Below are positions 1,014 through 55,645 of a stretch of 64,000 bases of DNA, piece by piece. A program made the position numbers and the translations under genes. Numbering within the stretch: the stretch's first letter is position 1; every line of letters begins with the position of its first letter. Origin of the DNA: Laetmonice hystrix (taxonomy: Eukaryota); assembly GCA_965235115.1 (NCBI GenBank), contig OZ249436.1:22198001-22262000 (forward strand), in the 5' to 3' direction. Below the pieces are notes generated by a model, which saw only the letters and a list, made by a program, of their open reading frames with translations, did not search any database and was not told the origin of the DNA.

Positions 1014-4000
1014 TTTGTTGTAGGAACCAGCAGACCGAGATGGTTTGTTGTAGGAACCAGCAGACCGAGATGGTTTGTCGTAGTCCGAGATGGTTTGTTG
1101 TAGGAACCAGCAGACCGAGATGGTTGGTTGTAGTTAACTAGCAGACCCAGATGGTTGGTTGTAGGAACTAGCAGACCGAGATGGTTTGTTGTAGGAACCA
1201 GCAGACCGAGATGGTTTGTTGTAGGAACTAGCAGACCGAGATGGTTTGTTGTAGGAACCAGCAGACCGAGATGGTTTGTTGTAGGAACCAGCAGCCCGAG
1301 ATGGTGTGTTGTAGGAACCAGCAGACCGAGATGGTTTGTTGTAGGAACCAGCAGACAGAGATGGTTTGTTGTAGGAACCAGCAGACAGAGATGGTTTGTT
1401 GTAGGAACCAGCAGACCGAGATGGTTGGTTGTAGCAACCAGCAGCCCGAGATGGTGTGTTGTAGGAACCAGCAGACCGAGATGGGTTGTTGTAGGAACCA
1501 GCAGACCGAGATGGTTTGTTGTAGGAACCAGCAGACCGAGATGTTGTGTTGTAGGAACCAGCAGACCGAGATGGTTTGTTGTAGGAACCAGCAGACCGAG
1601 ATGGTTTGTTGTAGGAACCAGCAGCCCGAGATGGTGTGTTGTAGGAACCAGCAGCCCGAGATGGTTTGTTGTAGGAACCAGCAGACAGAGATGGTTTGTT
1701 GTAGGAACCAGCAGACAGAGATGGTTTGTTGTAGGAACCAGCAGACAGAGATGGTTTGTTGTAGGAACCAGCAGACCGAGATGGTTGGTTGTAGCAACCA
1801 GCAGCCCGAGATGGTGTGTTGTAGGAACCAGCAGACCGAGATGGGTTGTTGTAGGAACCAGCAGACCGAGATGGTTTGTTATAGGCACCAGCAGACCGAG
1901 GTGGTTTGTTGTAGGAACCAGCAGACCCAGATGGTTGGTTGTAGGAACCAGCAGACCGAGATGGTTTGTCGTAAACCGAGATGGTTTGGTGTAGGAACCA
2001 GCAAACCGAGATGGTTGGTTGTAGGAACCAGCAGACCGAGTTGATTTGTCGTAAACCGAGATGGTGTGTTGTAGGAACCAGCAGACCGAGATGGTTTGTT
2101 GTAGGAACCAGCAGACCGGGGTGGTTTGTTGTAGGAACCAGCAGACCGAGATGGTTGGTTGTAGGAACCAGCAGACCGAGATGGTTGGTTGTAGGAACCA
2201 GCAGACCGAGATGGTTGGTTGTAGGAACCAGCAGACCGAGATGTTGTGTTGTAGGAACCAGCAGACCGAGATGGTTGGTTGTAGGAACCAGCAGACCGAG
2301 ATGTTGTGTTGTAGGAACCAGTAGACCGAGATGGTTTGTTGTAGGAACCAGCAGACCCAGATGGCTGGTTGTAGAAACCAGCAGACTGAAATGGTTGGTT
2401 GTAGGAACCAGCAGACCGAGATGGTTGGTTGTAGGAACCAGCAGACCGAGATGGTTGGTTGTAGGAACCAGCAGACCGAGATGTTGTGTTGTAGGAACCA
2501 GCAGACCGAGATGGTCTGTTGTAGGAACCAGCAGCCCGCGATGGTTGGTTGTAGAAACCAGCAGACCGAGATGGTTTGTTGTAGGAACCAGCAGACCCAG
2601 ATGGTTTGTTGTAGGAACCAGCAGACCCAGATGGCTGGTTGTAGAAACCAGCAGACTGAAATGGTTGGTTGTAGGAACCAGCAGACCGAGATGGTTTGTT
2701 GTAGAAACCAGCAGACCGAGATGGTTTGTTGTAGGAACCAGCAGACCTAGATGGTTTGTCGTAAACCGAGATGGTTTGTTGTAGGAACCAGCAAACAGGG
2801 ATGGTTTGTTGTAGGAACCAGCAGACCGAGATAGTTGGTTGTAAGAACCAGCAGACCGAGATGGTTGGTTGTAGAAACCAGCAGACTGATTGTTGTAGGA
2901 ACCAGCAGACCGAGACGGTTGGTTGTAGGAACCAGCAGACCGAGTCGGTTGGTTGTAGGAACCAGCAGACCGAGATGGTTGGTTGTAGGAACCAGCAGAC
3001 CGATTCGGTTGGTTGTAGGAACCAGCAGACCGAGATGGTTGGTTGTAGGAACCAGTAGACCGAGACGGTTGGTTGTAGGAACCAGCAGACCGAGATGGTT
3101 TGTTGTAGGAACCAGCAGACCGAGATGGTTGGTTGTAGGAACCAGCAGACCGAGATGGTTGGTTGTAGGAACCAGCAGACCGAGATGGTTTGTTGTAGGA
3201 ACCAGCAGACCGCGATGGTTGGTTGTAGAAACCAGCAGACCTAGATGGTTTGTTGTAGGAACCAGCAGACCAAGACGGTTGGTTGTAGGAACCAGCAGAC
3301 CGAGATGGTTGGTTGTAGGAACCAGCAGACCGAGATGGTTGGTTGTAGGAACCAGCAGACCGAGATGGTGTGTTGTAGCAACCAGCAGCCCGAGATGGTG
3401 TGTTGTAGGAACCAGCAGACCGAGATGGTTTGTTGTAGGAACCAGCAGACCGAGATGGTTTGTTATAGGCACCAGCAGACCGAGGTGGTTTGTTGTAGGA
3501 ACCAGCAGACCCAGATGGTTGGTTGTAGGAACCAGCAGACCGAGATGGTTTGTCGTAAACCGAGATGGTTTGTTGTAGGAACCAGCAAACCGAGATGGTT
3601 GGTTGTAGGAACCAGCAGACCGAGATGATTTGTCGTAAACCGAGATGGTGTGTTGTAGGAACCAGCAGACCGAGATGGTTTGTTGTAGGAACCAGCAGAC
3701 CGGGGTGGTTTGTTGTAGGAACCAGCAGACCGAGATGGTTGGTTGTAGGAACCAGCAGACCGAGATGGTTGGTTGTAGGAACCAGCAGACCGAGATGGTT
3801 GGTTGTAAGAACCAGCAGACCGAGATGGTTGGTTGTAGGAACCAGCAGACCGAGATGTTGTGTTGTAGGAACCAGCAGACCGAGATGGTTGGTTGTAGGA
3901 ACCAGCAGACCGAGATGTTGTGTTGTAGGAACCAGTAGACCGAGATGGTTTGTTGTAGGAACCAGCAGACCCAGATGGCTGGTTGTAGAAACCAGCAGAC

Positions 4001-5175
4001 TGAAATGGTTGGTTGTAGGAACCAGCAGACCGAGATGGTTGGTTGTAGGAACCAGCAGACCGAGATGGTTTGTTGTAGGAACCAGCAGACCGAGATGGTT
4101 TGTTGTAGGAACCAGCAGACCTAGATGGTTTGTCGTAAACCGAGATGGTTTGTTGTAGGAACCAGCAAACAGGGATGGTGTTGTAGGAACCAGCAAACCG
4201 AGATGGTTTGTTGTAGGAACCAGCAGACCGAGATAGTTGGTTGTAAGAACCAGCAGACCGAGATGGTTGGTTGTAGAAACCAGCAGACTGATTGTTGTAG
4301 GAACCAGCAGACCGAGACGGTTAGTTGTAGGAACCAGCAGACCGAGTCGGTTGGTTGTAGGAACCAGCAGACCGAGATGGTTGGTTGTAGGAACCAGCAG
4401 ACCGAGTCGGTTGGTTGTAGGAACCAGCAGACCGAGATGGTTTGTTGTAGGAACCAGCAGACCGAGATGGTTGGTTGTAGGAACCAGCAGACCGAGATGG
4501 TTGGTTGTAGGAACCAGCAGACCGAGATGGTTTGTTGTAGGAACCAGCAGACCCAGATGGTTGGTTGTAGGAACCAGCAGACCGAGATGGTTTGTTGTAG
4601 GAACCAGCAGACCGCGATGGTTGGTTGTAGAAACCAGCAGACCGAGACGGTTGGTTGTAGGAACCAGCAGACCGAGATGGTTGGTTGTAGGAACCAGCAG
4701 ACCGAGATGGTTGGTTGTAGGAACCAGCAGACCGAGATGTTGTGTTGTAGGAACCAGCAGACCGAGAAGGTTTGTTGTAGGAACCAGCAGACCGAGATGG
4801 TTTGTTGTAGAAACCAGCAGACCGAGACGGTTGGTTGTAGGAACCAGCAGACCGAGATGGTTGGTTGTAGAAACCAGCAGACCGAGATGGTTGGTTGTAG
4901 GAACCAGCAGACCGAGATGGTCGGTTGTAGGAACCAGCAGACCGAGATGGTTGGTTGTGGGAACCAGCAGACCGAGATGGTTTGTTGTAGGAACCAGCAG
5001 ACAGAGATGGTTGGTTGTAGGAACCAGCAGACCGAGATGGTTGATTGTAGGAACTAGTAGACCGAGATGGTTGGTTGTAGGAACCAGCAGACCTAGATGG
5101 TTGGTTGTAGGAACCAGCAGACTGAGATGGTGTGTTGTAGGAACCAGCAGACCGAGATGGTTTGTTGTAGGAACC
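1014..5175. repeat. Large minisatellite, 30-bp unit, about 140 copies, with higher-order duplications
   Basis: Unit gttgtaggaaccagcagaccgagatggttt; accounts for all overlapping 10-aa-period ORFs on both strands. Confidence 0.98.
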
Positions 5176-53219: not shown

Positions 53220-53758
53220 TGATCATAGATGACAAGTCTCACCTACAAGTTTAAAACAAGGTCAACTCGGTCGTACTTAGCTAGACTTACCACTGGGTCA
53301 GATATATGTACACTCCCCACGTTATCCAAGTCTAACAAAATGATAAAGAACTAAGCTCTCCTTTAATCACGATAAAACGCTCTGGTATACATCGACCAAG
53401 CTACATCTTGTTACTTCAATATCAATGTAAATAGTAATAGAGAGAAAATACAACCACATATCATGGGCTAAATTACTTTATCATAACGCAACCAGACGGG
53501 TCAAAACAGGAGTTGGATGGATGACTATTATAAAACCCAACCATGCAATGAGGGATTCATAGATCCGTGATGAGGCGTACTTAATATGTAGATGCAAAGA
53601 TATGAAATCCTTTTGGGACCGACAGATAAAATATTTGGACAAGATCGAAATCTCTGCATATTTGCTGCCGGAAAGCTGACTCGGCCGCTTGGGGAGTTGA
53701 ACGGATCATGATTTCAGGGCTATGTGATTCTACCGTTCATGGGACTCCATGTGGTTGA

Positions 53759-54175
53759 TGGGGACATCCTATCTAACAGGGACGCCAGAGTGGGTGGGAT
53801 TCCACAAGATGATGGGCACATCCTATCTAATAGGGACACTACAGTGGGTGGGATTCCACAAGATGATGGGCACATCCTATCTAATAGGGACACTACTGCA
53901 GTGGGTGGGATTCCACAATATGATGGGGGCATCCTATCTAATAGGGACACTACTGCAGTGGGTGGGATTCCACAATATGACGGGGACATCCTATCTAATA
54001 GGGACACTACTGTAGTGGGTGGGATTCCACAATATGACGGGGACATCCTATCTAATAGGGACACTACTGCAGTGGGTGGGATTCCACAATATGACGGGGA
54101 CATCCTATCTAATAGGGACACTACTGCAGTGGGTGGGATTCCACAATATGATGGGGGCATCCTATCTAATAGGGA
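53759..54175. repeat. 57-bp minisatellite, left part
   Basis: gggacactactgcagtgggtgggattccacaatatgacggggacatcctatctaata. Confidence 0.96.
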
Positions 54176-55036
54176 TGTTACGCGCCATCGGTCGATCTGA
54201 CCCATCGGCCGATGGGTCAGACCCATCGGTGGATCGGCCAACGGGTCGCCCGTCGACCGATGGGCGACCCATCGGTGGATGCGCGGCGCGCCAGGGTCGC
54301 GGCCCATCGGTGGATGGGTGGTTGGTAAACAGAACACAGGGATCCAATATATAAAACGAACTATACTCTAGTTATCATGAAGAAAAAAACGTTTAGCCGT
54401 AGGCACCCTAACTTTAACTTTAACAGAACTTGAAATGTGTGTGAAAAAAAAGTTGAGTAGTGTTAACAGCGGGTAAATCTGGGGGTAATCAAACATGGCA
54501 ACAATGGTCTGGACAGGAGGTGGGTGTGGGGTCTGGACAGGAGGTGGGTGTGGGGTCTGGACAGGAGGTGGGTGTAAGGTCTGGACAGGAGGTGGGTGTG
54601 GGGTCTGGACAGGAGGTGGGTGTGGGGTCTGGACAGGAGGTGGGTGTGAGGTCTGGACAGGAGGTGGGTGTGGGGTCTGGACAGGAGGTGGGTGTGGGGT
54701 CTGGACAGGAGGTGGGTGTGGGGTCTGGGCAAGAGGTGGCTGGGTGGTCTGGGCCGGAGGTGGCTGGGGGATCTGAGTTCTTGACTGAAGGGAGGCCTGC
54801 GGCTCGGGCTGAGAGGTAATTGTCTCCTCCAGGTTTTCATGTCATTTCATGTCTCCTGGTTTACCAACCAGCCATCCACCGATGGGTCAGACCCATCGGC
54901 CGATGGGCCGCGACCCTGGCGCGCGCCGCGCATCCACCGATGGGTCGCCCATCGGTCGATGGGCGACCCGTTGGCCGATCCACCGATGGGTCTGACCCAT
55001 CGGCCGATGGGTCAGATCGACCGATGGCGCGTAACA
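54176..55036. mobile_element. Non-autonomous DNA transposon, Ginger-like (TGTTA...TAACA, 4-bp TSD, long TIRs)
   Basis: ggga|tgttacgcgccatcggtcgatctgacccatcgg ... ccgatgggtcagatcgaccgatggcgcgtaaca|ggga; TIRs about 54176-54330 and 54859-55036; removing the element plus one ggga restores an intact 57-bp unit. Confidence 0.88.
54506..54775. repeat. 24-bp G-rich minisatellite inside the Ginger-like element
   Basis: gtctggacaggaggtgggtgtggg, about 11 copies. Confidence 0.95.
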
Positions 55037-55632
55037 GGGACACTACTGCAGTGGGTGGGATTCCACAATATGATGAGGACATCCTATCTAATAGGGACAC
55101 TACTGCAGTGGGTGGGATTCCACAATATGATGAGGACATCCTATCTAATAGGGACACTACTGCAGTGGGTGGGATTCCACAATATGATGAGGACATCCTA
55201 TCTAATAGGGACACTACTGCAGTGGGTGGGATTCCACAATATGACGGGGACATCCTATCTAATAGGGACACTACTGCAGTGGGTGGGATTCCACAATATG
55301 ATGGGCACATCCTATCTAATAGGGATACTACTGCAGTGGGTGGGATTCCACAATATGATGGGCACATCCTATCTAATAGGGACACTACTGCAGTGGGTGG
55401 GATTCCACAATATGACGGGGACATCCTATCTAATAGGGACACTACTGCAGTGGGTGGGATTCCACAATATGATGAGGACATCCTATCTAATAGGGACACT
55501 ACAGTGGGTGGGATTCCACAATATGACGGGGACATCCTATCTAATAGGGACACTACAGTGGGTGGGATTCCACAATATGATGAGGACATCCTATCCACTA
55601 GGGACATTACTGTAGTGGGTGGGATTCCACTA
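55037..55632. repeat. 57-bp minisatellite, right part
   Basis: Same unit as 53759-54175, resuming in register after the TSD. Confidence 0.96.
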
Positions 55633-55645
55633 TAATATGATGTGC

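Follow-up and report, generated by a model that had tools for sequence, protein, structure and literature searches.

The two groups of Ginger transposons both have TGTNR ends and 4-bp target-site duplications (TSDs). As described in PMC2836005, animal Ginger2 elements insert at RTATAY targets and carry terminal inverted repeats (TIRs) of 50-180 bp, and Ginger1 elements have TIRs of 40-270 bp, with CCGG, CCGT or ACGG accounting for 99% of their TSDs. Non-autonomous Ginger2 families have been reported, including Ginger2-1N1_NV (PMC2836005) and Ginger2_NA of Bombyx mori and Rhodnius prolixus (PMC3845634). In addition, tandem repeats that travel inside mobile elements, with a unit number that varies by copy, are represented by DTC84 of Donax trunculus (PMC3879986), a cassette that spreads its internal array, and by the non-autonomous element Tetris of Drosophila virilis (PMC4079207). 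On the strength of these accounts, both Ginger2 MITEs and MITEs that carry arrays are already in print.

Here we describe a MITE from a 64,000-nt stretch of the Laetmonice hystrix genome (the window, which denotes this whole stretch) and the family to which it belongs. As far as the accessible descriptions of Ginger2-1N1_NV and Ginger2_NA go, these families share with the MITE TGTNR ends, AT-rich 4-bp TSDs, an RTATAY-like target, the absence of coding sequence and copy numbers of tens to hundreds; the TIR length of the MITE falls within the reported 45-297 bp, and its first 7 bases are the same as those of the Bombyx Ginger2_NA (PMC3845634). The published families have identified autonomous relatives, whereas none was found for the MITE in genome searches. 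Furthermore, TIRs of palindromic modules, a target signature extending 3 bp beyond the TSD and a variable internal array are features of the MITE that do not figure in those descriptions, although the supplements may show them. DTC84 differs in that its inverted repeats are short, its duplication is AA and its core repeats number at most five (PMC3879986); set beside DTC84 and Tetris, the MITE is a Ginger2-like cassette with 5-119 units of 24 bp. In the literature on Ginger elements, nothing was found on modular Ginger2 TIRs or binding sites, and no study was found of how a Ginger2 transposase recognizes its ends; subscription papers, Repbase, Dfam and supplements may hold such material.

The window element and its terminal modules

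The element occupies positions 54176..55036 of the window (861 bp, delimited from the sequence and the family copies). It is presented on the plus strand, an arbitrary orientation used for all copies, and the features below lie on that strand unless otherwise indicated. It starts with TGTTAC, ends with GTAACA, and is bordered on each side by GGGA (left TSD, 54172..54175; right TSD, 55037..55040). Outside the TSDs, ATA (54169..54171) and CAC (55041..55043) form the left (RTR) and right (YAY) halves of a 10-bp target signature. The host sequence is a 57-bp minisatellite, with 7.5 units to the left of the element (53756..54175) and a right part that is back in register (55037..55634). When the element and one GGGA were taken out, the host units formed an unbroken run, confirming the statement of the earlier note that the array resumes in register. 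Re-measuring also returned the length, the TGTTA...TAACA ends, the 155/178-bp TIRs and the ggga TSD that the note had given. The window is rich in minisatellites, with 117 Tandem Repeats Finder rows in 1-64000, one of which, at 1014-5175, comprises 141 units of 30 bp. None of the contigs from four sequencing runs of one sample bridged the insertion site, and these data are therefore neutral on empty-site alleles; a search of metagenome contigs with the terminal 21-mer of the element gave 0 matches.

The interior between the TIRs begins and ends in unique sequence, about 175 bp before and about 85 bp after a G-rich 24-bp tandem array of 11.2 units (54506..54775). The array, absent from the earlier note, is part of the element family, and other copies contain 5-119 units. 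The longest Met-started frame in the element is 125 codons, and Ginger-type protein queries had no match at the locus.

The left TIR is 155 bp long (54176..54330) and the right TIR 178 bp (54859..55036, minus strand), the latter being the commonest length in the family. Their first 116 bp are 99% complementary, and an alignment of the two TIRs shows two substitutions and three gaps, of 21, 2 and 1 bp. The TIRs had been said to be tiled with modules, and the two 8-mer words of these, cccatcgg and ccgatggg, indeed had 14 occurrences in the element against two in the remaining 63 kb of the window. Two head-to-head modules form a perfect palindrome in the left TIR (54196..54221), and an identical one lies in the right TIR (54991..55016); the palindrome previously noted is thus perfect as stated, with a length of 26 bp instead of 24 bp and one occurrence in each TIR. 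The palindromic TIRs folded better than shuffled sequences (z -3.46), an excess that follows from the inverted modules and is uninformative about function.

The 21-bp gap corresponds to a module that, according to the TIR alignment, is retained in the right TIR (54887..54907, minus strand) and absent from the left. The earlier note had counted it as an extra module on the right. A gain on the right was rejected, as a left TIR of 176 bp is typical: 48 of 57 independent copies have one, among them L002, the closest relative (which matched a 325-bp query over 346 bp), and only 2 of the 57 had a left TIR of 155 bp. It follows that the window copy lost a module from its left TIR, between direct repeats spaced 21 bp from each other, with a loss point near 54302/54303; slippage or recombination is the inferred cause. 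Right TIRs in the same 57 copies were mostly 176-180 bp long (42 copies), with 9 of 199-201 bp and 2 of 157 bp, and the passenger subfamily had a left TIR shortened to about 74 bp.

The family, its target sites and its carriers

The family was searched for in the 627-Mb, 35-contig assembly. The terminal 22-mer had 209 exact matches (control, 0), and a 16-mer with two mismatches allowed had 798 matches versus 462 in the control, which corresponds to roughly 170 elements; the family numbers well over a hundred copies in this genome. A total of 101 complete copies were recovered, a sample biased to young copies and including only part of the passenger class, of which 57 were independent, 31 were in one carrier element (carrier 1), 8 were in another (carrier 2), and 5 were in two local duplications. 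Independent copies ranged from 590 to 3542 bp (median, 1392 bp), a spread that results from the variable length of the internal array. The window copy had 1 difference from L002 in 592 aligned non-array bases, in keeping with the earlier description of the element as young, and among the 59 copies then classed as independent, 4 were identical to their nearest neighbor and 20 were within 0.5% of it. The family is young. Long open frames through the 24-bp array were rejected as coding sequences, being repeat artefacts. At L132 and L043, frames of 1020 and 1068 aa lie within or next to the MITE copies and look like non-LTR retrotransposon insertions. Seven further loci (L125, L135, L120, L054, L134, L115, and L325) have ends with the first 16 bases of the MITE and other modules or interiors, which suggests that they represent older sister families; L120 contains an array of 21-bp modules.

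For TSD statistics, each carrier or duplication contributed a single event. Intact TGT..ACA ends were present in 56 of 63 insertion events, and in 38 of these 56 the flanks formed a perfect 4-bp TSD, where 1.9 were expected from mispaired flanks, so that the 4-bp TSDs called for by the earlier note were indeed found at other copies. Of the 18 events with no perfect TSD, 12 had one mismatch. Lengths of 3, 5, 6 and 8 bp gave 0, 1, 1 and 1 matches, respectively, with all others within 3-8 bp giving 0 or 1, and 2-bp matches numbered 13, with 8.7 expected. The TSDs were 79% AT, and TATA was the commonest. Among 39 perfect TSDs (including one carrier copy), 15 sites were at most one mismatch from RTATAY, as were 3.5% of flank 6-mers.

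Symmetrizing the target sites yielded the consensus RTR-TATA-YAY (RTRTATAYAY). Of 38 sites, 37 had a T two bases ahead of the TSD, and 33 matched at least 5 of the 6 positions of RTR....YAY, versus 6.2% of 20,047 background 10-mers; the signature was derived from the same sites on which it was scored. The window TSD, GGGA, is atypical of the AT-rich core, and all six of its flanking positions match the signature. Moreover, the host array carries an RTR-NNNN-YAY site in nearly every 57-bp unit (15 exact and 1 variant), so no special cause is required to explain why the element inserted into this minisatellite.

Of the 101 complete copies, 39 were passengers in a Harbinger-like or a Transib-like element. 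In carrier 1 the MITE is flanked by 1746 bp of carrier sequence on one side and about 1130 bp on the opposite side. The TIRs of this carrier are 16 bp long and start with GCCCG, and 12 of 19 copies have 3-bp TSDs; by TSD length carrier 1 appears Harbinger-like, with TSDs that are not strictly the TWA given for Harbinger in PMC4482050. It is non-coding and about 2.9 kb long plus the MITE (L095-L114), and its copies include inverted pairs (L033 and L035), a tandem pair (L038) and, in L112, one copy that appears nested in another. Carrier 2 is bounded by CAC..GTG, and each of its 6 complete copies has a 5-bp TSD, features that fit Transib as described in PMC1131882; it is non-coding, with long inverted repeats (L141, L170, and L333-L336). 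In each carrier the MITE lies at one fixed site, implying a single insertion that was then multiplied. Copy counts therefore overstate the MITE's own transposition, as at least 39 of the 101 copies stem from two carrier-multiplied insertions.

Two coding Ginger2-type families and the search for a partner

Protein searches of the genome identified two young coding families whose TIRs differ from those of the MITE. Family A is 5.3-5.4 kb long, with several exons, TATA duplications and TIRs of about 400 bp that are rich in palindromes of up to 32 bp. Its 6 loci (C3:3152055-3157446 [L288+L289], C4:34.61M, C2:47.73M, C30:4.26M, C1:61.25M, and C5:32.63M) are about 99% alike. A relative with 71% identity in one exon and its own modular end lies at C13:28.27M. 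Family B is 7.3-8.8 kb long, with TIRs of about 420 bp that contain repeated modules and an internal tandem array of variable length; its 4 loci are C1:37.21M, C2:14.72M, C2:11.95M, and C19:19.07M (L298-L301 and L245). The family B protein contains H2C2 and rve domains and lacks GPY/F. Several KRBA2-like proteins, a group placed within GINGER2 in PMC3575427, are among its named relatives. In a 27-row tree, in which family A was represented by one 117-aa exon and no named Repbase Ginger2 protein was included, families A and B joined the KRBA2-like proteins at 91/92, a key branch below the 95/80 threshold, apart from LTR and Polinton-type integrases. Complete copies of A and B had a perfect 4-bp TSD in 5 of 7 cases and one mismatch in 2 of 7, and RTR....YAY was matched at 6 of 6 positions in all 7, with the flanks read by eye and two of them in TA runs.

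The MITE and both coding families therefore have in common TGT ends, 4-bp TSDs, an RTR....YAY target and long TIRs of repeated, partly palindromic modules, whereas A and B have other module sequences, TIRs of about 400-420 bp and a transposase gene. When the ends of all three were aligned ungapped, 13 of the first 30 bases (54176..54205 in the window element) were identical in register. With TGT excluded, 10 of the 27 positions 4-30 were identical in all three, a match that was seen first and tested afterwards; shuffling gave a mean of 2.1, and a count of 10 was attained in 2 of 200,000 shuffles; among 100,000 inner windows taken at random, 2 attained it. Slid registers in this three-way comparison gave 1-4, versus 9. 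In addition, the MITE and family A alone matched at 24 of 42 terminal bases, a value reached by 0 of 20,000 shuffles. Over the whole TIR, local alignments of the MITE with A and B were weak, with 29 and 9 of 300 shuffles, respectively, scoring as well, and there was no blastn-level match between the TIRs of the MITE and those of A or B.

A longer copy with the same TIRs and a DDE integrase, which the earlier note had proposed to look for, did not emerge from the genome searches. No coding copy was found with exact end lists (which for AGA-preceded ends covered contigs up to C6), 9-kb inward reads from unpaired ends, or extensions of 10-20 kb for 12 lone ends; for the remnants at C5:35.80M, C12:28.69M, C1:23.72M, and C1:23.00M, 1.5 kb of flank on each side was covered. 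Genome integrase searches likewise gave no transposase with MITE TIRs among the best 150 candidates each, two Ginger-type queries found nothing at 181 loci, among them the MITE ends and their extensions, and blastn with the 180-bp TIR gave no match of note near Ginger-type integrase loci. One candidate for the partner's end, the single-copy L125, combines a complete TIR with a related stretch of subterminal sequence; it was rejected after 28 kb inward contained neither a second TIR nor an integrase match. A 3445-nt contig from one run extends outward from the L125 end.

The searches also revealed other integrases. A second non-LTR group, P0001 (L189, 2846-4505; L236, 2942-5651; and L207-L212), was sister to Polinton-type integrases in the tree; some of its database relatives have an OTU domain, and its members carry downstream what we take to be an OTU-like motif. 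In L236, a 903-aa open frame is enclosed by long repeat arrays that are inverted relative to each other. Eight loci (L242, L243, L244, and L247-L251), with integrase, ATPase-like and capsid-like frames, presumably represent Polinton/Maverick-type gene sets, of which two near-identical copies lie on C1.

Assignment and proposed mobilization

We consider it highly probable that the window element is a recent copy of a non-coding TIR family with 4-bp TSDs, likely moved in trans by a DDE transposase of the Ginger2/Tdd integrase type. The earlier note had called it a non-autonomous Ginger element, a proposal upheld by the 4-bp TSDs, the lack of gag-pol and the features shared with families A and B, and narrowed here to Ginger2/Tdd by the RTATAY-like target. 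The element has TGTTA at both ends, in the form TGTNR, and its TIRs of 155 and 178 bp, with 176 and 178 bp the commonest lengths in the family, compare with about 50-180 bp for Ginger2/Tdd elements and up to 297 bp in TDD-5. A cognate transposase of the Ginger2 clade would have H2C2 and DDE and lack both GPY/F and YPYY; the genome searches yielded none with these TIRs, and families A and B lend indirect support.

A Ginger1 origin would agree equally with the TGTNR ends, the 4-bp TSDs and the TIR length (PMC2836005), and the window TSD is G-rich; it appears very improbable, since CCGG, CCGT or ACGG was found in 0 of 39 perfect TSDs. Still less credible is a solo LTR or other remnant of a Gypsy-type retrotransposon. 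This genome is rich in LTR elements, and TGT..ACA ends with 4-bp TSDs occur among them, but LTRs have only short inverted ends and the TIRs here are 155-178 bp. Furthermore, none of the sampled copies borders gag-pol in direct repetition, the arrangement that the earlier note said would speak against its reading; no gag-pol was seen between or beside the ends, and the few integrase or pol matches in MITE loci fall outside the elements.

Another superfamily with 4-bp TSDs (Sola1, Chapaev, piggyBac, Kolobok, IS481EU or an OTU-bearing integrase family), with convergent likeness to Ginger2, seems to us improbable, if somewhat less so than the two preceding explanations. In its favor, the genome searches found no coding partner, and the genome holds P0001. 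Some transposon groups are specific for TTAA targets, and the variable TSDs found here do not fit them. IS481EU elements likewise have TGT..ACA ends and TSDs of 4 bp, or of 15 or 25 bp, but, within the part of the account used here, are reported only from parabasalids and have TIRs mostly shorter than 50 bp (PMC10045372), against 155-178 bp in the window element, for whose family TSD lengths of up to 9 bp were compared. Similarly, Sola1 TSDs are AT-rich (AWWT), but the tabulated Sola1 ends start with GGAC (PMC3845634). GingerRoot/IS3EU elements, as far as described, have 6-bp TSDs and mostly TA..TA ends; here a 6-bp match occurred in 1 of 56 events, and the ends are TG..CA. The in-register terminal match and the shared target point instead to the Ginger2-type families.

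DDE integrases bind the ends of their elements and join CA-3' ends to target DNA with a stagger that is filled by host repair. Under the Ginger2/Tdd assignment, the enzyme would come from a sister family of A and B, closest to A, and would be missing from or unrecognized in the assembly. It is predicted to dock on the conserved terminal 30 bp or so as its primary binding site, with the repeated inner modules as putative auxiliary sites, and it would then cut the element out and join the CA-3' ends to the target with a 4-bp stagger. The presence of modular TIRs in all three families lends this arrangement plausibility. That family A or B itself supplies the enzyme is less likely than a missing sister of A, and we hold it to be rather unlikely. 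Equally tentative is a broader proposal, in which Ginger2 ends would constitute a two-part code of a conserved frame of about 30 bp and fast-evolving palindromic modules, and the MITE family, its own transposase gone, would be cross-mobilized by the family A enzyme.

Since the MITE and the two young coding families share the terminal frame and the 10-bp target and differ in their modules, end recognition is testable in this genome. If the two-part end code is true, the three families would offer a ready-made set on which to test how cut-and-paste ends are recognized by a Gypsy-like integrase. The window copy alone is a routine MITE insertion. The family documents two ordinary routes by which repeats spread, namely, dispersal of a 24-bp minisatellite and multiplication of passengers by unrelated carriers, and it is notable mainly for the many copies that travel inside two other transposons.
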